Assembly (NCBI RefSeq): GCF_965221235.1
Contig: NZ_CBDCRS010000005.1
Span: forward strand, 48,076-112,075
Length of the DNA stretch: 64,000 nucleotides
Direction: 5' to 3'
Source: Ruegeria sp.
GTDB taxonomy: Bacteria > Pseudomonadota > Alphaproteobacteria > Rhodobacterales > Rhodobacteraceae
In this document: one piece after another, positions 1 to 46,942 of the stretch
Numbering within the stretch: position 1 is the stretch's first letter
Layout: every line of letters begins with the position of its first letter
Notes under the pieces: model-generated
Database searches by the model: none
What the model saw: only the letters and a program-made list of their open reading frames with translations
What the model was told of the DNA's origin: nothing
Translations under genes and position numbers: made by a program

Positions 1-134
1 CAGGCCCCCATGACGTATTTGACGCCTGCCTCTTCCAGCCGTTTCTTCACCTCGGGGATCTTCGGCCGGTTGCGTTCCACCGCGTCGTGAAAGCTCTCGT
101 AGTAGATTTTGCTGTTCGCGTTGTCCTTGGGCAT
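1..134 (-). CDS. 5' end of a glutamine-synthetase-family protein, runs off the window; not in ORF track
   Basis: Manual translation from ATG at 134: MPKDNANSKIYYESFHDAVERNRPKIPEVKKRLEEAGVKYVMGA; AGGAGG RBS 7 nt upstream; GVKYVM segment parallels GVKYFM at the N-terminus of the GS-family protein at 3508-4836. Only 44 codons visible. Confidence 0.6.
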   Translation of the reverse strand, partial: MPKDNANSKIYYESFHDAVERNRPKIPEVKKRLEEAGVKYVMGA

Positions 135-282
135 GAGGTGTCCTCCTGTCAGGGTGCCACCCGTCGTTTCATCGTGGCCGGGCAGTCTGGAATGTGGGCG
201 TTTGTTTGCCGTTAAGGGAAAGCAGGCACCCCGATTGTTGGGAGAGCATATAGGGTGCCTGCCTTCAGGTCGCAGCGGTGCA

Positions 283-687
283 TCAGCCCGCTACAAAATC
301 ATCCGGATCGATGCCGGGCACCTTGGTGATACCGGCCAGTTGCTTCCAGTTGTGGGGATAGGCGGCGTAGAAGATCACGCAGCGATCATCCGCCTCGTAT
401 GAGATGTGGTTGTCCTTGGGGATATAGAGAACATCGCCGCGGTCGCAGATGTAGGTTTCACCATCGCAGACCAGCCGAAAGGTGCCTTCCAGAACATAGA
501 TGATCTCGTCACAGGTCAGGTCCCACGGCACCTTGATGTTCTTCAGAACATTGATGCCGCCGCACATGGTCTTGGAAAACTCGCTGGTGACCATCGGTTT
601 GATGTAGGTGTCACTATCCTTGTCGCCGATCTGGTTGTAGCGATCATCGACAAGGTCCCATTTCATCAGTCTCGGTTTTTCGCCCAT
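283..687 (-). CDS. EutQ-like cupin (DUF861 type)
   Basis: 134 aa; WDLTCDEIIYVLEG...RGDVLYIPK cupin motifs; 3 bp downstream of gloA. Confidence 0.75.
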   Translation of the reverse strand: MGEKPRLMKWDLVDDRYNQIGDKDSDTYIKPMVTSEFSKTMCGGINVLKNIKVPWDLTCDEIIYVLEGTFRLVCDGETYICDRGDVLYIPKDNHISYEADDRCVIFYAAYPHNWKQLAGITKVPGIDPDDFVAG

Positions 688-690
688 GGA

Positions 691-1128
691 TCAGGACCCT
701 TCCTTGGCCAGATGTTTCAGAATGCTTTCGTTCAGCTCGACCTTGTAGCCGTCCGGGTCTTCGCAGAACGCGATCACGCGGGTGCCGTTCTTCATTGGCC
801 CCGGCGGGCGGGTGATGTTCACACCAGCGGCGGCCAGATCTTCGCAGGCTTTGTAGACATCGGGGGTCTCGATACAGATGTGCCCCCAGCCGTTGCCCTT
901 GTCATAGGGTTCTTCCTGATCCCAGTTCGCGGTCAGCTCCAGCGTCGGCGACTCCGCCTCGGGGCCGTAGCCGATGAAGGTGTTGGTGAATTTTCCTTCG
1001 GGATAATCCGTGCGGCGAAGGACCTGCATTCCCAGAATCCCGCAGTAGAATTCCAGCGATTTTTCCATGTCCGTCACGCGCATCATCGTATGGGCAAGGC
1101 GGAAGCCGCTGCTTAAGCTGTCCGTCAC
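691..1128 (-). CDS. gloA: Lactoylglutathione lyase (glyoxalase I)
   Basis: HTMMRV, LELTANW, YDKGNGWGHI, FCEDPDGYKVE match the Ni/Co glyoxalase I pattern. Confidence 0.85.
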   Translation of the reverse strand: MTDSLSSGFRLAHTMMRVTDMEKSLEFYCGILGMQVLRRTDYPEGKFTNTFIGYGPEAESPTLELTANWDQEEPYDKGNGWGHICIETPDVYKACEDLAAAGVNITRPPGPMKNGTRVIAFCEDPDGYKVELNESILKHLAKEGS

Positions 1129-1143
1129 ATCAGTCTCCTTAAC

Positions 1144-2253
1144 TCAGTGTGTTTCGGTCGCGGTCACATCCCGCGCCACCATTTCCTGAAACGCGCGCAC
1201 GCTGTCTTCCCACGCGGGGGACAGTACGCCGCCTGCCTCTGCGACGGTCGAGGCCCGTCCCAGTTGCAACCTTTCGGTCATTTCATGATCTTCTTTATGG
1301 ACGTCCCACCACAATTTCTTCAGGCCTTCGACCTCGTCCGCTGTCAGGTTCTGGCCTTCGGTGGTGTAAAGCGCGCGTTTCTGCATCATCGTGCCGGGGC
1401 CTGTGGGGATGTTCAGGTAAACTCCCAGCTGATCTGGGAAATACCGGCCCAGAATAAAGTTCGGGTACAGCGTCAGATACCGCGAGCTGACTGCCAGACT
1501 GCCGGATGTTCCGACCTCTTCGTCAAGATCGACCGCGCTGCCCAGACAGTTGCCGTCGATAATGGTATAGTGATCTTCAAGCGGCTGATCGGTGGTCGAG
1601 GAATGCACAAACTGCACATGATAGGGCTCGATGAAGTTCTCCATGATGAACTTCCAGTTGCAGGCCACCTCGCCGAAATCGAGCGTTCCGATACATTCCA
1701 ACTTGTCCCAATCCATACCATCAAGGCGGCCTTGAATCGTGGCTGAGTATTCGTCGAATTCTGGCGCTTGCCCGTCGAGGTTGACAAAAATCCAATCATT
1801 CCAGACATGGCTGCGCACCGGCACCAGACTGTTTTCCGCCTTGTCAAACCCGTCCGCCTTGTGATCGTTCGCGCCGCCGAAATGGGGTGCCGCCCGTAAC
1901 TGCCCGTCCAGATCATAGGCCCAGGCGTGATAGGGGCAGCGGATCAGCTTGCCCACATTCTTTGGTGCATCCACCAGAGTCAGGCAGCGATGGCGGCATA
2001 TATTGTGGAACGCTTTGATCTCACCTGCGGTATTGCGCACCAGCAGCAAGGGGTGTTCGGCCAGCGTGACCGGCACTGCATCTCCGGCGGCCTGCAGCTC
2101 ATGTGCAAATCCCACGCAAACCCAGTTGCGTGTAAAGACCGAGGCGCATTCGGCCCGCCAGAATTCAGCGTCTTTATAGGCCGCTGCCGGCAAGCCGCGT
2201 TTCAGGGTGGATTCTTCGTAGAAAGACTCAAGCAACGAATGGAGTGGCTTCAT
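1144..2253 (-). CDS. Rieske non-heme iron oxygenase alpha subunit (choline monooxygenase/CntA/GbcA-like group)
   Basis: Rieske motif CRH...CPYH; mononuclear Fe motif NWKFIMENFIEPYHVQFVH and EDHEM; 369 aa. Confidence 0.88.
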   Translation of the reverse strand: MKPLHSLLESFYEESTLKRGLPAAAYKDAEFWRAECASVFTRNWVCVGFAHELQAAGDAVPVTLAEHPLLLVRNTAGEIKAFHNICRHRCLTLVDAPKNVGKLIRCPYHAWAYDLDGQLRAAPHFGGANDHKADGFDKAENSLVPVRSHVWNDWIFVNLDGQAPEFDEYSATIQGRLDGMDWDKLECIGTLDFGEVACNWKFIMENFIEPYHVQFVHSSTTDQPLEDHYTIIDGNCLGSAVDLDEEVGTSGSLAVSSRYLTLYPNFILGRYFPDQLGVYLNIPTGPGTMMQKRALYTTEGQNLTADEVEGLKKLWWDVHKEDHEMTERLQLGRASTVAEAGGVLSPAWEDSVRAFQEMVARDVTATETH

Positions 2254-2555
2254 CGTTCAAGTTCCTGACTTAGGGTTTCAAGGTCGATGTCGCGACATGG
2301 TTCGGGTTTCCGTGACTCAGCGCTTGATCGTCAGTGAACTGCGAAAAACGCACCGTGTCTACATAAATTTACGAAATCAACACCAAAATGTTAAAGAATC
2401 TGCAATCAACTGATGCTGGTGCTGAGTTTACTTGATGGTTTCGCAGTCAGTGAGCGTCTCCTGAGGGCTGTCGTCTTCTCAGCAACCCGATTCAGTTCAT
2501 GTATCCGACCTCAGTACACCAGTCGGTTCGTATCTGGTGTTGGACCGCACGCAGA

Positions 2556-3413
2556 TCACCGGATGACTTTGCGCTGTGCATGGACCATCAGGCGGCTGGC
2601 CTTTTGGTCCATCTGGGCAAGTATCTCGTCGACCGATGGAACATCTCGGATCACGCCGATTCCTTCGCTGGCGGGACTCTCGGGCGATCCGTTGTGCAGT
2701 GTGCGTATAGCCGCGTGATCGGGCCAATCCGCATCCGCAGTCAATTTTGTGTCGTCGCCGGATGCGCGCAGGACATGGCGGGCGTGATGATCCGCGCCCA
2801 ACCCTTCGCGGCTGGCCCACAGCCGGGTACCCATGACGACACCGTCCGCGCCCATCACCAGACTGGCGGCCAGCCCGCGAGAGTCGGTGATACCCCCCGC
2901 AGCCAGCAGCAGTGTATCGTGGGCTTCGCGGTGCAGAAAATCAGCCACTTCCGGCAGCAACGTAAATGTTGAGCGCGCGCCAGAGTGTCCCGCCGCCGCA
3001 TTACCCTGCGCAACGATCACGTCAGCACCCGCTTCGACGGCAAGGGCCGCGCCGTGCAGGTCCTGTACCTGACAGATCAGCCGGGTTTTGGCCTGTGCGA
3101 TGCGCGGCGCAAAGGGGCGGGGATCGCCATGGGTCAAAAAGATCGCGCGCGGACGCCGGGCCAACACACGGTCCAGCAGTTCTGGTGTCTGTGCCAAGCG
3201 CCAGGTGACAAAGCCGCAGCCGACCGCCTCGCGCCCGGCTTCACGAAACTGTGTCTCGATCCAGTTCGCGTCGCAGCCCCCACCGCCAATTATGCCGAGC
3301 CCTCCGGCCTGTGCCACTGCTGAGGCGAGGCGGCCATCGGCCAGCCCCGGCATCGGGCTCAGGACCACGGGGCAAGTCAATCCGAACAGGCGGGTTAGTC
3401 GGGTGTCAATCAC
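2556..3413 (-). CDS. Nitronate monooxygenase family flavoprotein
   Basis: LAAAV-type SAVAQAGGLG, VAQG..AGH, LAAGGI.D.RG, GVVMGTR; 285 aa, C-terminal part looks short. Confidence 0.8.
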   Translation of the reverse strand: MIDTRLTRLFGLTCPVVLSPMPGLADGRLASAVAQAGGLGIIGGGGCDANWIETQFREAGREAVGCGFVTWRLAQTPELLDRVLARRPRAIFLTHGDPRPFAPRIAQAKTRLICQVQDLHGAALAVEAGADVIVAQGNAAAGHSGARSTFTLLPEVADFLHREAHDTLLLAAGGITDSRGLAASLVMGADGVVMGTRLWASREGLGADHHARHVLRASGDDTKLTADADWPDHAAIRTLHNGSPESPASEGIGVIRDVPSVDEILAQMDQKASRLMVHAQRKVIR

Positions 3414-3507: not shown

Positions 3508-4836
3508 TCAGATATCCAGCGTGTGCTGTTGCTCCCACCGCGAGAAATGGCTGACGAACGAGTTCCATTCCTGATGTTTCAGCTTCAGATAGGCGGCCGA
3601 GAACTCTGCGCCCATTGCCGCTTTCAATTCCGTGTCCCTGTCGTATTCGCGCAGCGCGTCCAGCATGTTGAGCGGCAGTTTCGGTGCATCTTTGACAGTG
3701 TGGCCATCGGCGTACATGTCAATGTCATGGCGTTGTCCCGGATCAGCCTTGGAACGGATGCCCGACAGGCCCGCCGCGATAATCACAGCTTGCAGCAGGT
3801 ACGGGTTGGCCGCGCCATCCGGCAGACGCAGCTCGAACCGGCCGGGGCCGGGGACCCGCACCATATGGGTACGGTTGTTGCCGGTCCATGTCACCGTGTT
3901 CGGAGCCCATGTCGCGCCCGACATGGTGCGCGGCGCGTTGATGCGTTTGTAGGAGTTCACCGTCGGGTTGGTGATTGCGGCCAGCGCGCTGGCGTGTTTC
4001 ATGATCCCGCCCAAGAAGTGCTTACCCTGTTCGGCCAGGCCCAATTCGCCGGTTGGGCCGTCGCCTTCGCCCGCAAAGACGTTGGTTTTTGCATCCGCCC
4101 CCGGCGCATCCCAAACCGAGATATGGGCATGGCATCCATTGCCCGTCAGCCCTTCGACCGGTTTGGGCATGAAGGTGGCGCGGAAGCCGTGCTTTTCGGC
4201 CACCGATTTGGTCATAAATTTGAAGAAGGAATGCTTGTCGGCGGTGCGGAGGGCATCGTCGAACTCCCAGTTCATCTCGAACTGGCCGTTGGCATCCTCG
4301 TGGTCGTTCTGGTACGGACCCCAGCCCAGTTCCAGCATGTAATCGCAAATCTCGCGCACCACATCATAGCGGCGCATCACCGCCTGCTGGTCGTAACACG
4401 GCTTTTCGGCGGTATCGAACGGGTCGCTGATCTGCTCGCCATCCGGGGTCAGAAGGAAGAACTCGGCCTCGATGCCGGTTTTCACATGCATGCCTTCGGC
4501 GGCGGCCTCGTCAATCAGGCGACGCAGCACGTTGCGCGGGGCCTGGGCGACATCCTCGCCCTCCATCACGCAATTGCCCGCAACCCAGGCGACCTCGGGC
4601 TTCCATGGCAGTTGGATTACCGAAGACGGGTCCGGCACGGCCAGCATGTCCGGGTGCGCGGGCGTCATATCGAGATAGGTGGCAAAACCCGCGAAACCCG
4701 CGCCGTCCTCCTGCATGTCGGCAATCGCTTGCGCGGGGACCAGTTTGGCCCGTTGTCCACCGAACAGGTCGGTGAACGAAATCATGAAGTATTTGACGCC
4801 TTTTTCTTTGGCGAAAGCTGCCAGATCTGTCGTCAT
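3508..4836 (-). CDS. gmaS: Type III glutamine synthetase family, gamma-glutamylmethylamide synthetase
   Basis: GAGFAGFA, EAEFFLL, DHEDANGQFEMN, TFMPKP, GNGCHAH, NRTHMVR, ELRLPDG; directly downstream of mgsABC. Confidence 0.85.
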   Translation of the reverse strand: MTTDLAAFAKEKGVKYFMISFTDLFGGQRAKLVPAQAIADMQEDGAGFAGFATYLDMTPAHPDMLAVPDPSSVIQLPWKPEVAWVAGNCVMEGEDVAQAPRNVLRRLIDEAAAEGMHVKTGIEAEFFLLTPDGEQISDPFDTAEKPCYDQQAVMRRYDVVREICDYMLELGWGPYQNDHEDANGQFEMNWEFDDALRTADKHSFFKFMTKSVAEKHGFRATFMPKPVEGLTGNGCHAHISVWDAPGADAKTNVFAGEGDGPTGELGLAEQGKHFLGGIMKHASALAAITNPTVNSYKRINAPRTMSGATWAPNTVTWTGNNRTHMVRVPGPGRFELRLPDGAANPYLLQAVIIAAGLSGIRSKADPGQRHDIDMYADGHTVKDAPKLPLNMLDALREYDRDTELKAAMGAEFSAAYLKLKHQEWNSFVSHFSRWEQQHTLDI

Positions 4837-4916: not shown

Positions 4917-6263
4917 TCAGAACCCGGCTTTGCCCGGATACCAGTCGGTGCCTGCCAGCGGCACTTTGGCCATTGCGGCGGCCTCCATGGTCAGGGCGCA
5001 GAGGTCCTCGGGTTCCAGATTGTGCAGGTGGTTGTGGCCACAAGCGCGCGCGATGGTCTGCGCCTCAAGCGTCATCACCTTCAGGTAGTTGCGCAACCGG
5101 CGGCCCGCTTCGATCGGGTCAAGGCGTGCGGCCAGTTCCGGGTCCTGCGTGGTGATGCCTGCCGGGTCCTGACCTTCGTGCCAGTCGTCATAGGCCCCGG
5201 TGGTGGTGCCCAGCTTCTGATACTCGGATTCCCATTTGGGGTCGTTGTCACCCAAAGCGATCAGAGCCGCCGTGCCAATGGCCACCGCATCCGCGCCCAG
5301 GGCCATTGCCTTGGCTACATCAGCCCCGGTGCGGATACCGCCCGAGATCACCAGTTGCACTTCGCGATGCACGCCCAGATCCTGCAGGGCCTGAACGGCG
5401 GGGCGAATGCACGCGAGTGTCGGAATGCCGACATGTTCGATGAACACGTCCTGCGTCGCGGCGGTGCCGCCCTGCATCCCGTCCATCACCACAACATCGG
5501 CCCCGGCTTTCACTGCAAGCGCGGTGTCATAGTAAGGCCGGGTTGCGCCAACTTTGACGTAGATCGGCACCTGCCAGTCGGTGATCTCGCGCAATTCGAG
5601 GATTTTGATCTCCAGATCATCCGGCCCGGTCCAGTCCGGGTGGCGACAAGCCGAGCGCTGGTCGATGCCCTTGGGCAGTGTGCGCATCTCGGCCACGCGG
5701 TCGCTGATCTTTTGACCCAGCAGCATGCCGCCGCCACCGGGCTTCGCGCCTTGCCCTACCACAATCTCAATCGCGTCGGCCTTGCGAAGATCGTTAGGGT
5801 TCATGCCATAGCGAGACGGCAGGTACTGATAGACCAGCTTCGACGAATGGCCGCGTTCTTCGGGCGTCATACCGCCGTCACCGGTGGTGGTGGAGGTGCC
5901 CGCCGCCGATGCGCCACGGCCCAGAGCCTCTTTCGCCGGACCGGACAGAGCGCCAAAGCTCATGCCCGCGATGGTCACCGGAATGTCCAACTCGATAGGC
6001 TTCTTGGCAAAACGCGTACCCAGCGTCACCGAGGTATCGCAGCGCTCACGGTACCCTTCCAGCGGATAGCGCGAGACCGAGGCGCCCAGAAACAGCAGGT
6101 CGTCGAAATGCGGCACCTTGCGTTTGGCACCGCCACCGCGAATGTCATAGATGCCGGTCGCCGCAGCGCGCCGAATTTCGGCGTTGATCGGGTTTGTAAA
6201 CGTCGCCGACTGAATCGGCATGGTGCGGGGGATGGTCTGATCCATATCTTTCATACCCTTCAT
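4917..6263 (-). CDS. mgsC: FMN-binding glutamate synthase family, N-methylglutamate synthase subunit C (GlxD)
   Basis: GMSFGALS, QGAKPGGGGMLLG, DGMQGGTAA, GGIRTGADVAKAMALGA. Confidence 0.88.
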   Translation of the reverse strand: MKGMKDMDQTIPRTMPIQSATFTNPINAEIRRAAATGIYDIRGGGAKRKVPHFDDLLFLGASVSRYPLEGYRERCDTSVTLGTRFAKKPIELDIPVTIAGMSFGALSGPAKEALGRGASAAGTSTTTGDGGMTPEERGHSSKLVYQYLPSRYGMNPNDLRKADAIEIVVGQGAKPGGGGMLLGQKISDRVAEMRTLPKGIDQRSACRHPDWTGPDDLEIKILELREITDWQVPIYVKVGATRPYYDTALAVKAGADVVVMDGMQGGTAATQDVFIEHVGIPTLACIRPAVQALQDLGVHREVQLVISGGIRTGADVAKAMALGADAVAIGTAALIALGDNDPKWESEYQKLGTTTGAYDDWHEGQDPAGITTQDPELAARLDPIEAGRRLRNYLKVMTLEAQTIARACGHNHLHNLEPEDLCALTMEAAAMAKVPLAGTDWYPGKAGF

Positions 6264-6265
6264 CC

Positions 6266-6949
6266 TCAGTAAGCGGCTGCGTTGTCGACGTCGAAATTGT
6301 AAAGCTGACGGGCCGAGCCGTAGCGCTTGAACTCTTCCGGCTTGGCGTCCGAGCCCGCGCGTTCCAGCAGGTCGGTCAGAATTTCGATATGCTCAGGCCG
6401 CATCTCTTTCTCGATGCAATCCGCGCCCAGGCTTTTAACCGAGCCGCGCACAAACAGCCGCGCCTCATAAAGCGAGTCGCCAAGCGCATCACCCGCATCG
6501 CCGCAAACAACCAGATTGCCCGCCTGCGCCATGAACGCCGACATGTGGCCGATATTGCCATGCACGACAATGTCGATGCCCTTCATCGAAATCCCGCAGC
6601 GCGAGCTGGCATTTCCCTTAATCACCAGCAACCCACCATGGCCGGTCGCACCGGCATATTGGCTGGCATCGCCGTCGACGACCACGGTACCCGACATCAT
6701 GTTCTCGGCCACGCCCGGACCCACCGAGCCTTCGACCTTGATGGTCGCCTGCTGGTTCATCCCCGCGCAGTAATAGCCGGTCGAACCTTTGACGGTGACC
6801 TCAATCGGTGCGTCCAGACCCACGGCGATGGCATGGCTGCCCTTGGGGTTCTGAACTTCCCAATTGGTCTGGTTGGTCTCGGCACTTTGCGCCTGCAGGG
6901 TCGAGTTCAAACCGCGCAGGCCGTTTTCTGCAACATCATACGTCTGCAT
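6266..6949 (-). CDS. mgsB: GXGXG/GltB-FmdC C-terminal-like protein, N-methylglutamate synthase subunit B (GlxC)
   Basis: Repeated GxxGxxxA motifs; start moved to MQTYD (6949), 1 bp after the mgsA stop. Confidence 0.85.
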   Translation of the reverse strand: MQTYDVAENGLRGLNSTLQAQSAETNQTNWEVQNPKGSHAIAVGLDAPIEVTVKGSTGYYCAGMNQQATIKVEGSVGPGVAENMMSGTVVVDGDASQYAGATGHGGLLVIKGNASSRCGISMKGIDIVVHGNIGHMSAFMAQAGNLVVCGDAGDALGDSLYEARLFVRGSVKSLGADCIEKEMRPEHIEILTDLLERAGSDAKPEEFKRYGSARQLYNFDVDNAAAY

Positions 6950-6950
6950 C

Positions 6951-7847
6951 TTAATGGCTCCAGAAATAAACGGTCGAGGGTTCGGGTTCCCAGACCTTGG
7001 CATCTTCGATGCCCGGAAGGTTCACCAGCGCACGGTATTCGCTGCCGAACGCTACGTATTGATCGGTCTCGGCCATCACTGCCGGTTTGCAGGCGATCGG
7101 GTCGCGGACCACGCCGAACCCATCCTTGGTGCCGACCACGAACGTAAAGAACCCGTCCAGATCCTCCAGGCTGCTTTCCAGTGCCTCGCCCAGCGTGGCT
7201 CCGTTTTGCATCTTCCAGGTCAGGTAAGCCGCGCCTACTTCGGTGTCGTTCATCGATTCAACCCGCACACCTTCGCGCTTAAGCTTGCGGCGTAGCGAGT
7301 TGTGGTTCGATAGCGACCCGTTATGAACCAGACACTGGTCCGAACCGGTGTTGAACGGGTGTGCGCCCTCAGTCGTCACCGCGGATTCCGTTGCCATTCG
7401 TGTATGACCGATCCCGTGGCTGCCGCCCATGGTCGACAGCTTGAAGCGATCTGCCACGTCTTTGGGCAGGCCAACCTCTTTGTATATCTCAATCGTCTCG
7501 CCGTCCGACATCACGCGCAATTCGGGGCGCAACTCTCGCACGGCTTGACGTGCCTGGTCGACTTTCGAGGCGTCCAGTTCCAGCACGGCGTGCGTATCGT
7601 TTGACCGCAAGGAAACCTCAGTTCCTATCGCTGCCCCTAGATCAGCCGCCAGTGTCGCAAAGTCCTGATCCGGAGAATCCGACTGCACCGTTAGCTTGGC
7701 GGCACCATCCGACTCTGCGCCGTAAATTGCGATACCTGCGCTGTCCGGGCCGCGGTCGGTCATTGTGACCAGCATGTCCGTCAGCATTGAGCCTAATTCA
7801 GGCTCCAAAGTCTTGTCCTTAAGAAACAGACCGACAATTCCACACAT
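6951..7847 (-). CDS. mgsA: Class II (Ntn) glutamine amidotransferase, N-methylglutamate synthase subunit A (GlxB)
   Basis: MCGIVG start, RGPDSAG, GHTRMAT, HNGSLSN, NDTE. Confidence 0.88.
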   Translation of the reverse strand: MCGIVGLFLKDKTLEPELGSMLTDMLVTMTDRGPDSAGIAIYGAESDGAAKLTVQSDSPDQDFATLAADLGAAIGTEVSLRSNDTHAVLELDASKVDQARQAVRELRPELRVMSDGETIEIYKEVGLPKDVADRFKLSTMGGSHGIGHTRMATESAVTTEGAHPFNTGSDQCLVHNGSLSNHNSLRRKLKREGVRVESMNDTEVGAAYLTWKMQNGATLGEALESSLEDLDGFFTFVVGTKDGFGVVRDPIACKPAVMAETDQYVAFGSEYRALVNLPGIEDAKVWEPEPSTVYFWSH

Positions 7848-8021: not shown

Positions 8022-8672
8022 CTAGTTGCTTTGCGGATACGAGATCACAGACAGGTAGCGCGCAGGAAGTTTCACCAGGTCTTCTGGGCCGTGGGGCGCG
8101 TCTGCATCAAAGAAAAGTGTATCCCCGGGTTCAAGCGAATAGACCGAGTCGCCGTGGCGGTATTCGACTTTACCCTCAAGCATGTACAGCATTTCTATCC
8201 CGCCATGCTGAAAGGTGGGAAACCGGTCGGATTCTTCGGTCAGAGTGATCAGGTAAGGTTCGACCACCACGCCGCTGGCATTTGCCCCCAGATGGCCCAG
8301 AAGGTTGTACTGATGCCCGGCGCGCGTTCCGGCGCGTTCCGTTTCAACCCCTTTACCCGCTTTGGTATGCACCGCGTTCCGGGTTTCCTCATAACCCCGA
8401 AAGAACGAGGTAATGGGCGCGCTTAAGGCGTTGGCCAGCAGTTGCAGCGTAGTCAATGACGCCGAGGTCGCGCCGTTTTCGATCTTGGACAACATGCTGA
8501 TCGAAAGGCCGGTTGACGCCGACAATTCCGCAATCGTAACAGATTGCTGAAGGCGCAGGGCTTTGATTTCGCGACCAATAGCGACCTCAAGGTTCTTCTC
8601 GCCGATGTCCCGAACCTTGTGAGGATCCTGCGACAGGGCTGTTGGCTTTTTGTTTTTCGTTGTCCGCGCCAT
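8022..8672 (-). CDS. XRE-family HTH plus cupin transcriptional regulator
   Basis: HTH ELSASTGLSISMLSKIENG; cupin HGGIEMLYMLEG...FFDADAPHG; likely start MARTTK at 8672. Confidence 0.85.
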   Translation of the reverse strand: MARTTKNKKPTALSQDPHKVRDIGEKNLEVAIGREIKALRLQQSVTIAELSASTGLSISMLSKIENGATSASLTTLQLLANALSAPITSFFRGYEETRNAVHTKAGKGVETERAGTRAGHQYNLLGHLGANASGVVVEPYLITLTEESDRFPTFQHGGIEMLYMLEGKVEYRHGDSVYSLEPGDTLFFDADAPHGPEDLVKLPARYLSVISYPQSN

Positions 8673-9347
8673 CAGGGTCCTCTGTCGTGTATTAGGTGGT
8701 CCTGTCTGACCTTGACACAGGTTGGGCCGTTTTGGGTAGTGGTCCTGCAAGGAAATATTCTTTCCCGACAGGGAAGCTCTTGTTGGGCGACGGGAGAGCA
8801 GACTCTCAGGACTCAGAATCGTCCTGTCGGCGTTCTGCGTCACAACTGCGCCCTGTCAGGGTCATTTCAAACTGCTCTGGCAAGTATATTGCGTGGACAT
8901 ATTCCCCTGATGTGGCATGTAATACGACAATACCTAACGTGGATGTGACCGAAGAGCCACGGCTGTTGTCAGCTTAAAATTGTGATCTGCAAAGCACTTC
9001 TCTGCCTTAGGCAGGTGTGATTTAACTTTGCTGGTGGGGGCGAAGCATTGGAAAATGGTCTATGACCTGATGTGGAGCGGTAGTTGATTGAGTATAATAC
9101 CTTTAAAACTATTTCGGAGGACTCAAGATCGCAGCCCGGACAAGGGTAGGGTACGCGCAGGAGAGTTGTTCATGTTTCCATTCTCACCACAAATCGTGTG
9201 CCATTTGGACCGTTTACCAAGCGCCGAATAGTTCAAAACTCAAAGTTACGCAGAGGCTGCTCTCTTTTTTAGGCCGATGCATCTAAAATTGGCTAGAATA
9301 CCGATCGCGACAGCGGACATCGCGACCCAAGCATTCAGGACGAAAAT

Positions 9348-11960
9348 ATGATCTCCTACTCACCTCAACCGCCATCATCGTCGCCCGTTAGCGCAATCCA
9401 GGGTGCCTGGGCTTATGGTGACGGTGACCCTGCAACGACCACAACCATCACCTACAGTTTCGCACAACAGCCCGGCACGCAGGCTTGGACAGAAGCCTAC
9501 AGGAGTGATTTTCGCGCCGCTTTGGCTGCCATCGAGTCCGTTGCAAATATCCGCTTTGTCGAGGTGGCAAATCCGTCATCGGCTGATCTGGTGGAATACA
9601 TCGCGCCCAGCTCGTACTTCGGTTCCAACACCACGCTGGGTTATCATTATACCCCTTCCAGCCGCCCGTCCGAGGGGGCGTTCAACACCGACTTCTGGAA
9701 TGCCGGGGCCAATGGTGATCCGGGCGGGTTCTTCTTCACCACGATTCTGCACGAACTGGGACACGCTCTCGGGCTGGGGCATCCGCATGATGACGGTCTG
9801 AATACAACTGTCATGCAGGGCGTGACCAGTCCGTTTAACTCCTTTGGCGTCGGCAATCTGAATCAGGGCGTTTACACCGTGATGTCATATAATGACGGCT
9901 GGACGTCGCGCGATGGCTTCCTTCCGTCGTCGGCGACATTTGGTGGCTCGACCGGCTTGGGCGCTTTGGACATTGCCGCGCTTCAGGCTATGTATGGTGC
10001 AAACACGACGACCAATGGCGGCAACAACACCTATAGTCTCGCGTCTTCAAACGCGCCCGGGGTCGGGTATCAGGCGATCTGGGATACAGGTGGCATCGAC
10101 ACGCTGCGCCATACCGGCAGCCAGAATGCTGTACTTGATTTGCGGCCCGCCACACTGGATTACTCGGTGCGCGGCGGTGGCGGCGTTTCTTATGCCGCAG
10201 GTGTAAAAGGTGGCTATACCATCGCAGCTGGCGTCGTAATCGAGAACGCATCCGGCGGGTCCGGTAACGACACCATCTTTGGAAACGAGGCGGTCAACAC
10301 CCTTCGAGGCAATGATGGCAACGACACAATTAATTCACGTTCAGACGGGTCCAACAATAATACAATCTACGGCGGAAACGGGCATGACACAATCCGGCTG
10401 GCTGGTGGATTCGGCGCAGATACGGTTTATGGTGGCGAGGGCGATGATACTGCCATTATAAGAAATAATTCAGGGTCTTTCTTTGGTGGCAGCGGGTTTG
10501 ACACGGCTTCCTTTATAGGCGCAACAAGCGGCTTCCTGTTTTCAGTTGTTGGCGGAAACTACACTTTCTTCAACGTAGTGGCGCGAATAACCTTTACGGT
10601 AGGTGCAGATGTTGAACGCTTTATGTTTGGGGATGGCGAGGAGCAGTTTGACGCCAACCAGCTTATCGCGGCGACGCGCATCAGAGATATCGAGGTGACA
10701 GGAACTGCGCTGCAACATGCCGCGCAGGGGATTTACTTGCTGGATGGGGCTACATCCAACATTGCTATTGTTCGAAATGGAGCCGCGGTTGGCGAGTCAA
10801 CATATGCGAACTGGAGCGCAATTCAGGCCGAAGCGTCGGGAAGCGACTATCGCATCCTGTGGCTGAATACCAACGGTCAGTATTCCGAGTGGACCGTCAA
10901 CGGCCTAGGAAGGTTTCAAAGCGCCGCCGATATCAACAACGTCGTGGATGTAGAGACGTTCTACAACGCCGATCTCAACAATGATGGCGCGATCGGGCAT
11001 ACGACAACGGCTGTGGAGTCGGATGGTACGACGACGCTTGAAGATTCGACGCACGGTTACTACTTGCTTGGCGGCAGTGTATCACTGTCGCGGAATGGTG
11101 ATGACATCGGGTCCAGCAGCTATACAAATTGGAAGGCCGTTCAAGCTGAGGCTGATGGCGCTGGATACCGGATGCTTTGGGTTAGCACCAACGGCCAGTA
11201 TTCGGAATGGAGTGTCAACAGTCTGGGACAGTTCCAAAGCGCCGCTGTCATTGACAACGTCGTAGATGTCGAGGTGTTTTATGATGCCGACCTCAACAAT
11301 GACGGAACGATCGGGCATACGACAACGACTTTGGAAACGGAAGGCACGACGACTCTGGGATCGTCCACGCACGGCTATTACCTGCTTGGCGGCAGTGTAT
11401 CACTGTCGCGGAATGGCGATGACATCGGGTCCGAAACCTATGCGAATTGGCAGGCCATTCAGGCCGAGGCCGATGGTGGCGGCTACCGGCTGCTGTGGGT
11501 CAACACCAACGGCCAGTATTCGGAATGGACCACCAACGGTCAGGGCCAGTTCCTGAGCAGCACCAATATCGGCAGTGTTGTGGATGTTGAGGCGTTCTAT
11601 AACACCGATCTCAACAATGACGGCGCGATCGGGCATACGACAACGACCATTGAATCCGATGGCACGTCAACTCTGGAGGCGTCCACGCAGGGTCATTACC
11701 TGCTGGGTGGCAGCGTCGTGCTATCGCTGAACGGCAACGATGTCGGGCCGGATAGCTATGCGAACTGGCAGGCCGTTCAGGCCGAAGCTGATGGCGCTAC
11801 CGGCGGCTACCGGGTGCTGTGGGTCAACACCAACGGCAAATACTCGGAATGGACCGTCAACAGTCAGGGCCAGTTTCAGAGCGCGGCCAACATCGACAAT
11901 GTCGTGGATGTTGAGGTGTTTTATGACGCCGATCTCAATAATGACGGCACAACCGGGCAT
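9348..11960 (+). pseudogene. Serralysin-like (M10) RTX metalloprotease with Trp-rich repeats, 5' part truncated by IS21
   Basis: HELGHALGLGHPH zinc motif, TVMSY Met-turn, GGxGxD repeats; frame reads 17 codons into the IS and stops at 12014. Confidence 0.85.
11001..11960 (+). repeat. Three tandem ~106-aa Trp-rich units (318, 318 and 324 bp), plus a degenerate unit upstream and a partial unit at 14667-14900
   Basis: Units start at 11001, 11319, 11637 (ACGACAACG after GGGCAT); consensus NWxAxQAEA..GYRxLWxNTNGxYSEW..DLNNDGxxGH. Confidence 0.9.
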
Positions 11961-12055
11961 TGTACGCCGTCAACCATTTTGTCCGGTAGCGACAACCTCG
12001 TTGTCCGGTTTTAGCCGCAGTTCATGACGTGTTTATGGTCTGGTTTGCTTCTCCT

Positions 12056-12859
12056 TCAGGTTTTGGCTTTTCCGGTGGATTTTTGTTTTGGCCGACGTTG
12101 ATTTTCAGCTGAGCGTCGCCTGTAGCTTTCGAAGTTCATCTCGAGGATCGTGGCGTGATGAACCAACCTGTCGATGGCTGCGACGGTAACAGCTTGGTCG
12201 GGGAAGATTTTGCCCCATGCACTGAATGGCTGGTTGGCAGCGATCGCAAGGCTTCGGTTTTCATAGCGCCGTGCGATAAGTTCGAAGAGAACAGAGCTTT
12301 CGGCGTGGTCTTTCTGGGCATATGTGATGTCGTCCAGAATGACGAGATCGAATTTGTCGAGTTTGGCCAGTGCAGTTTCCAACACGAGATCTCGCCGGGC
12401 AGCCTGAAGTTTCTGTACCAGATCGGTTGTTCGCGTGTAGAGGACGCGATTCCCGGCTTCGATCAGAGCATGTCCTATGGCGCAAAGAATATGCGTCTTG
12501 CCCGCGCCGGAGTTTCCGATGGCGATCAGATTGGCGCCGGTTTCAACCCAGTCGCCTGCTGCGAGCGCCTCGATCCGGGCTTGTGACAGCTCAGGTACGG
12601 CTTTGAACTCGAATGTGGCCAGGGTTTTTCCGCCGGGCAGGCCCGATTGGCCCAGGTGGCGTCGAATGCGGCGTTCCTCGCGCTCAGCCAATTCGATCTC
12701 GGCTAGAGTGGCCAGCAACCTGGCTGCAGGCCAGTTCTCGGTATCGGCCTGTTGCGCGAAGCGCTCCCAGTGGTGCTGGAAGCTGGGCAGACGCAAAGCG
12801 GTGAACAGGGCGGGCAAGGCGTGCACATCGACAGTTTGTGGTTTGGACACCTGTGTCAT
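12056..12859 (-). CDS. istB: IS21 helper ATPase
   Basis: GNSGAGKTH Walker A, LVILDD, IDRLVHHA. Confidence 0.93.
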   Translation of the reverse strand: MTQVSKPQTVDVHALPALFTALRLPSFQHHWERFAQQADTENWPAARLLATLAEIELAEREERRIRRHLGQSGLPGGKTLATFEFKAVPELSQARIEALAAGDWVETGANLIAIGNSGAGKTHILCAIGHALIEAGNRVLYTRTTDLVQKLQAARRDLVLETALAKLDKFDLVILDDITYAQKDHAESSVLFELIARRYENRSLAIAANQPFSAWGKIFPDQAVTVAAIDRLVHHATILEMNFESYRRRSAENQRRPKQKSTGKAKT

Positions 12860-14364
12860 GTGCGCACCTCCAGCAAGCGATCGAAGCTGGACAGATCCGT
12901 CAGTCTGACCTTTCGGTCTTCCGGCAATTCCGTGCGTGACCCAAGGAGTTGTTTCCGCAGGGTTTTGGCATCTGGCAATGCGCCATTTGCAAAGTCCCCG
13001 GCGATCAGCGCGGCCAGGTCTGCCTCGCAGTTCTCGCTATGGGCCAGCCAGAGCAGATCGACCATGCGTTTGCAAGCCTCTTTGCGGGGCAAAACCTCGG
13101 AGAGGCGGTTCCAGGCCTCAGCGTATTCGGACCTGGGGAAGAGATTGTCGCGATAGACGGAATTTGCCAAAGCCTGAGGCTTGCGACGCAGGGCATGGAT
13201 GACATGCCGGTAATTGATGCTATGGATACGTTTACCGTCCTTGCGCCCGCGCATGCGGGGATGGGAGACCACATGCGTGGCCCCGAGATAGGCTTCGATC
13301 CGGTCGTCATAGACGTGAACGCGCAAGCGCTGGCCGATGAACTGCGAGGGCACGGAATAGAACACGCTGTGGACCAGGAAACCTCCGGTCCTGACAACAC
13401 GCACGACAAGTTCGGTGAAGTCGGTGGTGCGCTGCGTGGGCAGCGGCTTGAGGTGTTGCAACTCGACTTTTATCTTGTCCTCACGGCGGCGGTTGCGGCG
13501 GGCGACAACTTCGTCGACAAACCGGCGCCAGGCATCGATGTCGGGAAAGTCCCGCGATCCCCGCAGGATCAGAGCCTGATCCAAAGCCACCTTGAGATGA
13601 TTGTTGTGTGCTTCGATCGCGCCATTCTCATGGGCTTCGCCGGGATTATTGCGGCTCGCGACCATCCCATAGTGCCGACAGAACGCCTCATAACGTTCGG
13701 TGACATCCCTGGTCGCATCCTTGTCGAGATTGCGATACGCGGCCGACAGGCTGTCGGTTCTGCTCTCCTGCGGCACGCCCCCAAGTGTCCAGAGCGCATT
13801 CTGAAGGTTTTCAGCCAGTGCCGTGAAACTCTCCCCGCCCAGAACCGGCGCGGCATGCTCCCAGCCGCTGTAGGCGAGAACAAAGTGGAAAAGCCGATGA
13901 AGCAGCAAATGACCGGCGATTGTCACGCCGAGTTCAGTCGCATCGGTGAAGTCCGACAGTCCCATACGCCCTGGCTCCGGGGACTGGCGAAAGATCACGT
14001 CGCGCTCGGGGCCATGCAGGGCGCGCCACTCCCGAACCCGTCGTTCCAGCGTCCGCCGGACCCGATCATCGGGGAAGCCGTCAGGATCCAGCATCTGCAA
14101 ATGACGGAGCAACGTCACAGCTTGCACGGAAGAATCCCGTTCGAGGAGCGGGATCAGGATAGGCTGCCACACAGCCTCCAAAGGATCAGGGACGGTGCGA
14201 CCACGGACTGGTTTGCGCTGCGAAGGCAGTACCGGGTTTGCTTCAATCCTGCGCCCGGTGCGTTCGCTGAAACCGGCACGGGCTGCGGCAACACGTTGGT
14301 TATGAAAGGGTCGGTCGGACATGTACAATCTCATTTGCTGGTCGGTGACGGGTTTCCCCGGCAT
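12856..14364 (-). CDS. istA: IS21 DDE transposase
   Basis: SDFT, RTDSLSAA, HENGAIE; 4-bp overlap with istB. Confidence 0.93.
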   Translation of the reverse strand: MPGKPVTDQQMRLYMSDRPFHNQRVAAARAGFSERTGRRIEANPVLPSQRKPVRGRTVPDPLEAVWQPILIPLLERDSSVQAVTLLRHLQMLDPDGFPDDRVRRTLERRVREWRALHGPERDVIFRQSPEPGRMGLSDFTDATELGVTIAGHLLLHRLFHFVLAYSGWEHAAPVLGGESFTALAENLQNALWTLGGVPQESRTDSLSAAYRNLDKDATRDVTERYEAFCRHYGMVASRNNPGEAHENGAIEAHNNHLKVALDQALILRGSRDFPDIDAWRRFVDEVVARRNRRREDKIKVELQHLKPLPTQRTTDFTELVVRVVRTGGFLVHSVFYSVPSQFIGQRLRVHVYDDRIEAYLGATHVVSHPRMRGRKDGKRIHSINYRHVIHALRRKPQALANSVYRDNLFPRSEYAEAWNRLSEVLPRKEACKRMVDLLWLAHSENCEADLAALIAGDFANGALPDAKTLRKQLLGSRTELPEDRKVRLTDLSSFDRLLEVRT

Positions 14365-44737: not shown

Positions 44738-45361
44738 ATGAGAGATTTGAATATGCGGATAGTAATCGGATCTTTAGCCGCTTTCGTGATGTCCCTGATT
44801 ATGGGAACTGTCGCATTGGCGCAGTCTTATCAAATCCAACCGGGCGATGCGCTACGGGTTGAAGTGCTTGAAGATCCGACGCTTAACCGAACCATTCTGG
44901 TTCTGCCGGATGGCTCAGTTACCTTCCCGTTGGTCGGATCGTTGCGTGCATCGGGCCAGTCGACGGATGCGTTGGGCAGATCGCTGTCCTCCGCGTTGTC
45001 TTCCAACTTCAATGCACCTCCGACGGTTTTCGTTTCGATCGCTTCGCTGGCACCGCAATTGCAGGCCGGTACCCTGCAAACCGGTCCGACGATCGAGGTG
45101 TTTGTCATGGGAGAGGTTGGTGTTCCCGGAAAGCATATTGCGACCGAGGGGACAACGATCCTTCAGGTTCTGGCTCAGGTCGGTGGCCTGACCAACTTCG
45201 CGGCCCGCAAGCGCATCGAATTGCGCAGGGCTGATACTAAAACAGGCGTGATGAACAAATACACATATAACTACAACGGCACGGGCGCGGGCATTAAAGG
45301 CAATACTGTTCTCAAAGCCGGAGATGTTGTGGTCGTTCCACCACGCCGCTTGTTCGAATAG
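44738..45361 (+). CDS. Polysaccharide export protein (Wza-like)
   Basis: Signal peptide, YQIQPGDAL, PDGSVTFPLVG, VMGEV..PG, LKAGDVVVVP. Confidence 0.85.
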   Translation: MRDLNMRIVIGSLAAFVMSLIMGTVALAQSYQIQPGDALRVEVLEDPTLNRTILVLPDGSVTFPLVGSLRASGQSTDALGRSLSSALSSNFNAPPTVFVSIASLAPQLQAGTLQTGPTIEVFVMGEVGVPGKHIATEGTTILQVLAQVGGLTNFAARKRIELRRADTKTGVMNKYTYNYNGTGAGIKGNTVLKAGDVVVVPPRRLFE

Positions 45362-45373
45362 GGGCAAATACAG

Positions 45374-46942
45374 GTGGGAAAATCCGGATTAAGGCGGGTC
45401 TCGGCAATTGGGGGCGGGGTAGCTTTTCTTGTTTCTCTTTCGCCAGCGATGGGGCAACAAACTGCGACAACGCAACAGACGCTCAGTTCAACTCAGCAAA
45501 CGACGGTGCAGCAAACGACTGCGCCGTCGTCTCAAATTCAGCAAGCACCCAGCCTGCAACTTATTACCCAGCAGGGGCAGCGTAACCCTGCCCGCCGGGT
45601 TGGGTTGCCGAATTCAACGCTGCCAGCCGGCACCGGATCCGGTCTGACCGTTACCCTGGATTACCTGTCATCGCTTAGGCATGACGACAACCTGCGTCTG
45701 ACCGATCCGTCGCTGGGCTCGACCACCTGGTGGGAGAACACGCTGGCGCTGAACGTACAGAGACAGACACCGGATTCCCTTCTGGATTTCGATTTGTCTG
45801 GGCTTTATCGGATCGCCAACGAGCCGATCATTGGCACTGAGTCCAGCTTCTCCGACCCGCTTTCGCGATTGTCGTACCAGCGGACCCGCGCCAACAGCCA
45901 GCTAAGCCTGCTGGCCGAATATCGGGAACGCGATCTGGCCTTCAACCGCAGCCTAACCGATATCAACCTAGACGGCGTCATTGATGCCTCGGATGTGATT
46001 GGAACGGTTGGTGACCAGGTTAACACGCGTGGAAACCTGGATTGGGAAACCGGTCTGAATGACCCCATCGGGTTCCGGTTCAACTATAACCGCCGTGAAC
46101 GGAGATATTCCAACACCATCGACCCGAACCTTTTTGAAAACAGTTCCGATGACTACGCCGCAACCACGTTGTTTCGGTTCTCCCCGGTTCTGCAAGGCAA
46201 CCTGCGCCTCAGCTATCGGGACTTTCAGGCCGAGGACAGCTCGCGCACGGATCGGCAGACAACGGTAGCCTCGACAGGCGTGACCTATGATGTTTCCTCC
46301 ATCACTTCCGTCTCGGCGAATGTCGGCTACAGCCGTGTGGACGACACACAGCGCACCAACAACATTAACAACGTGACCGAGGATTTTGTCTGGAGCTTTG
46401 GCTGGGACAAAATTCTGCCGGATGGCTCAGCAAACGCACAGATTGACCAAACCTTCGGCGTAAACGGCTCACGGATCAACGCAACAGTTGGTCGGGATTA
46501 CCAGCGCTCGGGCGGTTTCTTTGGGTTCAACGTCGGGTTTACACGCGGACCTTTCGATGAAGTCACTCCGATCGGTCAGATCAACTATCGCTATCAGCTG
46601 GCCAGCTCGCAGATTGGCGCGACAATCCAGCGCCGGGTCGGCACCAGTACGCAAAGCGTCGAGACCCGGCAGACGCTGGCGTTCCTGACCTATGACTATT
46701 TCATCAATCAGGTGTCCGCCCTGTCGTTCAGCGCCAGCTTCATCGACCAAGAGGATGAAGGGACAGGCACTGCAAATCCGCGCCAGCGTGGTACCTTCAA
46801 CGCGGCATATTCCCGTGCGATCACAAAAGACTGGGCCATGACCTTTGGTTATCAGTATGAGATGGATGACCAGAACGGGTTTGACGCCAGTTCAAATGCA
46901 TTCTCGTTGACACTCGGGCGGCGTTTCACACTTAAACCCTGA
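45374..46942 (+). CDS. Outer-membrane beta-barrel protein of the EPS locus
   Basis: Signal peptide, Q/T-rich N-terminus, alternating amphipathic beta strands; position between wza and exosortase. Confidence 0.65.
   Translation: MGKSGLRRVSAIGGGVAFLVSLSPAMGQQTATTQQTLSSTQQTTVQQTTAPSSQIQQAPSLQLITQQGQRNPARRVGLPNSTLPAGTGSGLTVTLDYLSSLRHDDNLRLTDPSLGSTTWWENTLALNVQRQTPDSLLDFDLSGLYRIANEPIIGTESSFSDPLSRLSYQRTRANSQLSLLAEYRERDLAFNRSLTDINLDGVIDASDVIGTVGDQVNTRGNLDWETGLNDPIGFRFNYNRRERRYSNTIDPNLFENSSDDYAATTLFRFSPVLQGNLRLSYRDFQAEDSSRTDRQTTVASTGVTYDVSSITSVSANVGYSRVDDTQRTNNINNVTEDFVWSFGWDKILPDGSANAQIDQTFGVNGSRINATVGRDYQRSGGFFGFNVGFTRGPFDEVTPIGQINYRYQLASSQIGATIQRRVGTSTQSVETRQTLAFLTYDYFINQVSALSFSASFIDQEDEGTGTANPRQRGTFNAAYSRAITKDWAMTFGYQYEMDDQNGFDASSNAFSLTLGRRFTLKP

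Follow-up and report, generated by a model that had tools for sequence, protein, structure and literature searches.

In the sea, much carbon and nitrogen is exchanged in the form of methylated amines and quaternary ammonium osmolytes, which are also precursors of climate-active gases. To our knowledge, the known aerobic routes (CntAB, GbcAB, Tmm-Tdm-Dmm, and GmaS with the N-methylglutamate route) include no oxygenase with a glyoxalase as its obligatory partner, and we know of no CntA, GbcA or Stc2 locus that requires glyoxalase I. Among the group V Rieske oxygenases, the enzymes of clade Va cleave C-N bonds (carnitine, choline, benzalkonium), whereas those of clade Vb (GbcA, BmoA, Stc2) demethylate (PMC7948474). 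The subject of this report is a gene module at the beginning of a 64,000-nucleotide stretch of DNA from Ruegeria sp. (the window; G000:C5:48076-112075, on a 302,742-bp contig), in which a predicted CntA-like Rieske oxygenase is encoded together with glyoxalase I, a cupin and an amine ligase of the glutamine synthetase (GS) family.

The minus strand carries all genes concerned, those of the module and the methylamine genes alike. A further 18 kb past the window edge were fetched as L003 (window position = L003 position - 18000). The module genes are as follows:

2253..1144, minus strand: Rieske oxygenase alpha subunit, 369 aa (PF00355, PF00848)
1128..691, minus strand: glyoxalase I (lactoylglutathione lyase, GloA), 145 aa (TIGR00068)
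687..283, minus strand: EutQ-like single-domain cupin, 134 aa (PF06249)
134..3, minus strand: GS-family amine ligase, first 44 codons, ATG at 134, cut by the window edge (Gln-synt_C)
L003 18134..16692 (= G000:C5:46767-48209): complete ligase, 480 aa (open reading frame in the genome sequence)

An earlier note on this DNA had described four co-oriented genes, the first three only 3-15 bp apart, and the open reading frames and their spacing are as described: 15 bp separate the Rieske gene from GloA, with an AAGGAG ribosome-binding site, 3 bp separate GloA from the cupin, and 148 bp the cupin from the ligase. These four genes are real, but the unit extends past the ligase. Outside the window, 60 bp past the ligase, follows a gene for a 339-aa MetX-like alpha/beta hydrolase, then an Lrp/AsnC regulator and a divergent ABC importer of the NitT/TauT type, whose binding protein is NMT1/SsuA-like. 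The importer region also holds a 127-aa open reading frame and a second Lrp/AsnC gene; the two Lrp/AsnC paralogues are 84% identical and bracket the importer and the 127-aa frame (L003 10597-11181 and 14868-15401; G000:C5:40672-41256 and 44943-45476). Judged from this gene order, the four window genes appear to be the start of a larger conserved accessory operon that comprises the Rieske oxygenase, GloA, often the cupin, the ligase and the hydrolase.

Homologues of the Rieske protein numbered 2351 at E <= 1e-20. A scan of one genome per species gave at least 404 relatives, of which the best 80 loci, all from other genomes, were analysed; feature counts use only loci with enough flanking sequence, and the fractions describe conservation, not statistics:

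GloA directly after the Rieske gene: 76/78 loci
cupin present: 56/76 loci
ligase downstream: 60/68 loci
hydrolase: 47/61 loci
Lrp/AsnC gene: 47/58 loci

Loci without the cupin have only non-coding DNA in its place. On annotated contigs of Labrenzia, Ruegeria arenilitoris and Hoeflea the five genes occur in identical order, and in the latter two an Lrp/AsnC gene lies directly upstream, with no methylamine genes nearby. Many marine bacteria carry the module, among them members of Ruegeria, Leisingera, Roseibium, Hoeflea and Silicimonas, and it also occurs in Hyphomicrobiales, Rhodospirillales and gammaproteobacterial metagenome-assembled genomes (MAGs); its distribution is patchy, with six of 301 genera of its own family positive when one genome per genus was scanned, the window's genome included. 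The recurrence of the gene order across the 80 loci speaks against a chance arrangement and supports the co-oriented module proposed in the earlier note. That the note did not recognise the combination as a named pathway agrees with a full-text literature search, which found no published description of the module or its substrate and no characterised counterpart. The catabolism of homarine, which yields N-methylglutamate, was considered as a match and rejected, as the homABCDER paper (2026) has no mention of a Rieske protein, glutamine synthetase, glyoxalase or cupin.

The Rieske protein matches PF00355 (67.7 bits) and PF00848 (82.6 bits); its top NCBIfam match is GbcA, at 137.7 bits and under the cut-off of that model, and its best PDB sequence matches include CntA, Stc2 and 3n0q. 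In a fold search with an AlphaFold model of the protein (pTM 0.78), CntA chains took ranks 1-13 (TMq 0.63-0.65), followed by Stc2. The ligands of the Rieske centre (CXH...CXXH; C86, H88, C106, H109) are invariant in the alignment. At the iron site, a HMMER alignment pairs NFIEPYHVQFVH with NYMECYHCGPAH of CntA, by which E209 corresponds to the bridging E205 of CntA, and H212 and H217 to the iron histidines H208 and H213; this 12-residue motif is identical in 80/80 loci. D322 is also invariant, and its match to CntA D323 rests on a weak alignment. F207 (NFIEPYH) aligns with Y203 of CntA (NYMECYH), the position whose Tyr or Phe contacts the trimethylammonium group through a cation-pi interaction, and at which clade Vb has Asn (PMC7948474). 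The attribution of the earlier note to CntA/GbcA-type enzymes is thus upheld by fold, sequence neighbours and F207, and the oxygenase is predicted to be a group V, CntA-like enzyme that carries the signature of the C-N-cleaving clade Va.

No gene for a Rieske beta subunit is present in the module, and no reductase gene was found among its recurrent neighbours in the 80 loci. A relaxed motif search of the genome gave a GbcB-type reductase candidate (C4:864658-865728) with the FNR motif RxYS and a C-terminal 2Fe-2S ferredoxin motif CX4CX2C, which adjoins another Rieske paralogue (G000:C4:864658-867353); by these motifs, it could be the electron donor in trans for the oxygenase of the module.

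GloA scores 149 bits against TIGR00068 (cut-off 120) and 138 bits against E. coli glyoxalase I (1f9z), and its four metal-ligand contexts are present (H in AHTM, E in LELT, H in WGHI, E in KVEL). A second, weaker GloA-like gene is located on the main chromosome, and the module's GloA is therefore a dedicated extra copy of a glyoxalase I, as which the earlier note had named it. Adjacency by chance of a housekeeping gloA and unrelated genes is scarcely credible: that each of the gene families is common is all that speaks for it, and it is contradicted by the conservation of GloA behind the Rieske gene, by the second GloA-like gene on the chromosome and by the gaps of 3 and 15 bp. The cupin matches Pfam PF06249 (EutQ) with 71.9 bits, and its PDB matches 4axo and 2pyt are EutQ proteins; it is not a full-length EutQ (NF012001, 60 bits against a cut-off of 193) and covers the C-terminal cupin part only. 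By its family and position, it is probably an accessory, EutQ-like member of the module.

In true glutamine synthetase, Asp50' binds and deprotonates ammonium. The ligase of the module is a member of this family (Gln-synt_C, 307 bits) that stays under the GmaS cut-off (TIGR03105, 363 bits against 469.6) and shares 31-33% identity with GmaS. In an alignment with archaeal GS, its FAVHS falls opposite FDGSS, so that the ammonium-binding Asp50' is replaced by Ala, as in GmaS, and either GPQFAVHS or GPQFAAHS is found in all ligase orthologues. The flap Trp of GmaS (VTWAP), the flap Glu (GFEGG) and all metal and ATP ligands are retained, and the signature motifs are conserved in at least 62 orthologues. 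In the GmaS active site used for comparison, which has Ala at the Asp50' position (PMC7948447), Asp177 deprotonates methylamine and Arg288 binds the glutamate analogue; in the ligase, these residues of RhGmaS are replaced by Val and Gly (NSYNGL), respectively. Lacking Asp50', the ligase cannot be an ammonia-specific GS, in line with the GS-like ligase of the earlier note, and by its scores and residues it is predicted to be neither a true glutamine synthetase nor an orthologue of GmaS.

The hydrolase scores 454 bits against PRK07581 (cut-off 332) and is not MetX (TIGR01392, 154 bits against a cut-off of 500). Its nearest solved relatives, matched over the full length with about 220 bits, are 5e4y and 5d6o, which their depositors named homoserine O-acetyltransferase and which we take to be the esterases MekB of Pseudomonas veronii and CgHle (HTA-like esterases). 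MekB is a broad-specificity esterase (PMC2975365). The nucleophile motif GWSMAG (GXSXG) is present in 51/51 orthologues of the hydrolase.

The pairing of a GS-like ligase with a Rieske oxygenase is the hallmark of aniline and naphthylamine degradation (PMC11335346), and an aromatic-amine dioxygenase system of the aniline type, or another characterised pathway, was accordingly weighed. It is very unlikely, since the Rieske protein matches the group V quaternary-amine enzymes best. As a candidate, the AtdA/TdnQTA1A2B type was rejected, the module having only the ligase and the alpha subunit in common with it, whereas genes for a beta subunit, a GATase-like partner, a reductase and ring cleavage are absent.

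Within the module, Rieske and GloA are paired most tightly, and they occur alone in L023-L025 and L089, as second copies in genomes that have a full module as well; L023 shares its contig with the full module L047, and L025 is in the same assembly as the full module L046. In L088, from a MAG of the Hyphomicrobiales, Rieske-GloA is accompanied by the cupin, a LysR regulator and a homologue of the 127-aa frame, and the same genome has a separate Lrp-ligase-Lrp-ABC unit (L090). The ligase is paired with the hydrolase alone in L093, and four of the six genomes checked that do not have it next to the Rieske gene hold an orthologue (63-77% identity) elsewhere. Two distant genomes (L091 and L092, 9387-13358) encode, after the ligase orthologue, an NAD-binding/DUF1932 protein, a methyltransferase of the MttB family and a deacylase of the AstE/AspA type; this downstream toolkit differs from that of the module, and the substrate may be related.

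Such separate occurrences (L023-L025 and L089; L088; L090) would be expected if Rieske-GloA-cupin, ligase-hydrolase-importer-Lrp and gmaS-mgsABC were two or three independent units that act on different compounds and merely travel together in methylated-amine islands. A further point for this explanation is a strong hairpin that, in the window, separates the ligase gene from the cupin gene:

218..266, minus strand: RNA hairpin with a 15-bp stem, immediately 3' of the cupin stop codon, ahead of the ligase gene (RNA fold)

The minus-strand fold of 135-290 has a minimum free energy of -53.9 kcal/mol, and the centroid structure retains the hairpin; a terminator scan made no call at 218..266, and no clear U tract is present 3' of the hairpin. 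By this predicted fold, it may act as a partial terminator or an mRNA stabiliser. Independence of the units is nevertheless improbable: the order Rieske-GloA-(cupin)-ligase-hydrolase is held in most loci and in several orders, the unlinked ligase orthologues co-occur with the Rieske gene in the four genomes mentioned, and the loci L023 and L025 with Rieske-GloA only belong to genomes that also carry a full module.

BCCT carriers typically transport quaternary or sulfonium solutes. A BCCT gene (PF02028, 496 bits) is located between the ligase and the hydrolase in L008, L014, L015, L021 and L060, and an ABC importer takes this place in the Leisingera-type loci L060, L066, L074 and L076. Judged from position, the importer that serves the operon would be the NitT/TauT-type ABC system in the present genome and an in-operon BCCT carrier in close relatives; the binding protein of the ABC importer had no PDB match. 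The Lrp/AsnC regulators probably control the operon. The 127-aa frame had no Pfam match, and its homologue in L088, 53% identical, sits after the cupin. Separately, at G000:C4:988877-994802 the chromosome of the present genome has a cluster of a gene of the MttB family, a Rieske paralogue (35-38% identical) and a BCCT carrier that shares 44% identity with the in-operon BCCT of the relatives; this cluster looks like a separate quaternary-amine locus.

From the gene content, the conservation, the family memberships and the active-site signatures observed, a substrate, a chemistry, an order of steps, and roles for the cupin and the hydrolase can be proposed. Our preferred reading, held tentatively and at somewhat less than an even chance, is that the operon serves to degrade a small cationic nitrogen compound, probably a quaternary or N-methylated ammonium compound with an N-CH2-C(=O)-R unit, in which the Rieske oxygenase acts first. 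After import, the CntA-like oxygenase, with electrons from a reductase encoded elsewhere, would hydroxylate the carbon next to the nitrogen, and the hemiaminal would collapse to an amine and a 2-oxoaldehyde of the methylglyoxal or glyoxal type. GloA and glutathione would turn the aldehyde into S-(2-hydroxyacyl)glutathione, from which the esterase-type hydrolase would free the D-2-hydroxy acid; alternatively, the hydrolase would strip a gamma-glutamyl group. The GS-family ligase would gamma-glutamylate the pathway amine and so tie the route to gmaS-mgsABC.

That the oxygenase would make a 2-oxoaldehyde is suggested by the Rieske-GloA pairing, which is best explained in this way; and since a 2-oxoaldehyde arises only if the attacked carbon adjoins a carbonyl, the substrate should contain the N-CH2-C(=O)-R unit. 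The in-operon BCCT importer and the cation-pi residue argue that the substrate is free and cationic, probably quaternary, and not an uncharged gamma-glutamyl amide. By this reasoning, the candidate substrates are trimethylaminoacetone, 3-dehydrocarnitine (carnitine-derived), betaine aldehyde (choline-derived) and aminoacetone-type amines. About ten loci have, upstream and in divergent orientation, a gene for a D-2-hydroxyacid dehydrogenase, which fits a D-2-hydroxy acid product; in many cases a second Rieske protein, of the LigXa type, accompanies it. As an observation apart, L094 (6942-9307) has a LigXa_C-type Rieske protein and a D-2-hydroxyacid dehydrogenase divergently upstream of an Lrp-Rieske unit, a pair found in about eight loci; the L094 module is without GloA.

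The earlier note had put glutamylation before oxidation, and this order was weighed as a rival to the Rieske-first reading. In it, an imported primary amine would be gamma-glutamylated, and the Rieske enzyme would oxidise the conjugate to glutamine or a gamma-glutamyl product plus a 2-oxoaldehyde; GloA would clear the aldehyde, and the alpha/beta hydrolase would be a gamma-glutamyl amidase, by analogy to the Puu, Ipu and aniline systems. Examples of such a substrate would be aminoacetone or, once oxidised, 1-aminopropan-2-ol or ethanolamine; alternatively, a quaternary nitrogen and a primary amine would be present in one compound. We regard a ligase-first order as possible but doubtful. It accounts for the importer genes directly after the ligase gene, for the free-standing Lrp-ligase-Lrp-ABC unit (L090) and the ligase-hydrolase pair (L093), and for a ligase that, without Asp50', acts on a non-ammonia substrate; the ligase of L091 and L092, with its AstE-type deacylase, MttB-type methyltransferase and dehydrogenase, also seems to follow a logic of making, modifying and breaking an amide. 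The nitrogen of a gamma-glutamyl amide, however, is non-cationic, yet the Rieske protein keeps the invariant cation-pi residue of clade Va and BCCT carriers occur within the operon; Rieske-GloA is also encountered without a ligase, both in second copies and in separate units, and the module has no GATase-type gamma-glutamyl hydrolase. The order of the earlier note is thus disfavoured by the Rieske-GloA pairs that stand apart from the ligase, and by the cation-pi residue and the BCCT carriers, which point to a free cationic substrate.

Several points weigh against the Rieske-first reading. A tertiary amine such as trimethylamine cannot be gamma-glutamylated, and the ligase therefore fits poorly with a trimethylammonium substrate; with Gly and Val at the positions of Arg288 and Asp177 of GmaS, doubt extends to its acid substrate as well. 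The proposal is weakest at the ligase: the released amine must be primary (and feed mgsABC), or the substrate must have a second, primary amine, or the order must be ligase-first. The importer genes, where present, always adjoin the ligase, which together with the separate Lrp-ligase-ABC unit L090 fits the ligase-first order better. As for the oxygenase, its model is of medium quality only (pLDDT 71), and the Cys206/Cys209 pair of CntA is absent, with P210 and V213 in its place; such a Cys-X-X-Cys pair beside the iron site is common in group V, not universal (PMC10952381). Finally, the 80 loci are phylogenetically non-independent, many of them being from Ruegeria.

Upstream of the Rieske gene, the window carries an intergenic region, an NMO-like gene and the methylamine genes:

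2254..2555, minus strand: AT-rich intergenic region of 302 bp, upstream of the Rieske gene (promoter scan and alignment)
3413..2556, minus strand: NMO-like FMN oxidoreductase, 285 aa, between gmaS and the Rieske gene (PF03060, 108.9 bits)
4836..3508, minus strand: gmaS, gamma-glutamylmethylamide synthetase (TIGR03105, 656.9 bits, cut-off 469.6)
6263..4917, minus strand: mgsC, N-methylglutamate synthase subunit
7003..6266, minus strand: mgsB, N-methylglutamate synthase subunit
7847..6951, minus strand: mgsA, N-methylglutamate synthase subunit
8843..8022, minus strand: XRE-HTH and cupin regulator, at the head of the methylamine genes (PF01381, PF07883)

The counterparts of mgsC, mgsB and mgsA in Labrenzia carry the Glu_synthase, GXGXG and GATase families. 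The module had been placed directly downstream of gmaS, but the NMO-like gene and the 302-bp promoter region intervene. An NMO-like homologue, which may be a loose member of the module, is next to the Rieske gene in 13/71 loci and can have either orientation. In the intergenic region, a promoter scan gave a promoter-like -35/-10 site at 2394..2366, which is flanked by the inverted words TGCGAAA (2340-2346) and TTTCGCA (2439-2445); the blocks around these words are conserved in an alignment of eight upstream regions of relatives. The module would hence have its own promoter and a candidate operator, the latter being TGCGAAA/TTTCGCA, as a putative site for an Lrp/AsnC or XRE regulator.

The link to the methylamine genes that had been claimed earlier stands in part, as mgsABC adjoins the module in other loci as well, whereas gmaS is not an immediate neighbour:

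mgsC upstream: 15/63 loci, from at least two orders
gmaS upstream: 8/63 loci

MgsC is 95-97% identical between Ruegeria and Roseibium, and this identity across genera suggests that the whole island moves horizontally; the operon, too, appears to have spread by horizontal transfer. Five genomes have a 92%-identical mgsC beside the module, with no close gmaS adjoining. A role of the ligase as a substitute for gmaS where mgsABC abuts the module was considered and not established, as a gmaS-like gene (62-64% identical) and a second mgsC (54-56%) are located elsewhere in those genomes.

Two further features lie near the methylamine genes. At window positions 12056-14364 (minus strand), two open reading frames of 502 aa and 267 aa, the latter with an ATPase-like GNSGAGKTH motif, look by eye like IS21-type istA/istB. 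At 9348-12014 (plus strand), an 888-aa frame has, by eye, a zinc-protease-like HELGHALGLGH, glycine-rich GGxGxD-type repeats and four long internal repeats.

If the preferred, Rieske-first reading is true, the operon would represent a hitherto unrecognised source of (tri)methylamine or methylamine, a rare pathway that deliberately makes a toxic 2-oxoaldehyde together with its own detoxification, and a case of new specificity among the GS-family ligases. The stronger claim is a more speculative and rather unlikely one: that this is an unrecognised aerobic route of marine bacteria in which a CntA-like enzyme splits a 2-oxoalkyl ammonium compound to a volatile methylated amine and a 2-oxoaldehyde, a MekB-type esterase stands in for GloB, and a ligase of new specificity feeds the N-methylglutamate route. 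The isolate names of some of the module-bearing MAGs hint at sponge and coral sources, and the compound may thus be derived from a host or an alga.

In comparison with known systems, the oxygenase shares with CntA/CntB (YeaW/YeaX) and the other clade Va enzymes (choline monooxygenase, OxyBAC) the Rieske CXH...CXXH, the EPYH...H iron motif and the bridging Glu and, as in CntA, has an aromatic residue at the Y203 position (F207) and no beta subunit gene; it differs in being only about 21% identical to CntA (structural alignment), in having no adjacent reductase gene and, from the CntA, GbcA and Stc2 loci, in being paired with glyoxalase I. With GmaS and the N-methylglutamate pathway (gmaS-mgsABC-mgdABCD), whose genes are adjacent here, the ligase has in common the GS fold, Ala at Asp50' and the flap Trp; in contrast to GmaS, it has about 25 extra N-terminal residues and keeps the flap Glu. 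Relative to the GloA/GloB system, the module has a GloA above the equivalog cut-off and no gene for GloB (metallo-beta-lactamase type); instead, an esterase-type alpha/beta hydrolase is present, which shares the GXSXG nucleophile and full-length similarity with MekB/CgHle and may or may not take the GloB role. The systems for putrescine (PuuA-D), isopropylamine (IpuC/D/F) and aniline (AtdA/TdnQ) likewise have a ligase, an oxygenase and a hydrolase in one operon, from which the module is set apart by a MetX/MekB-type hydrolase in place of a GATase-type amidase, by a group V Rieske oxygenase and by an integral glyoxalase I.

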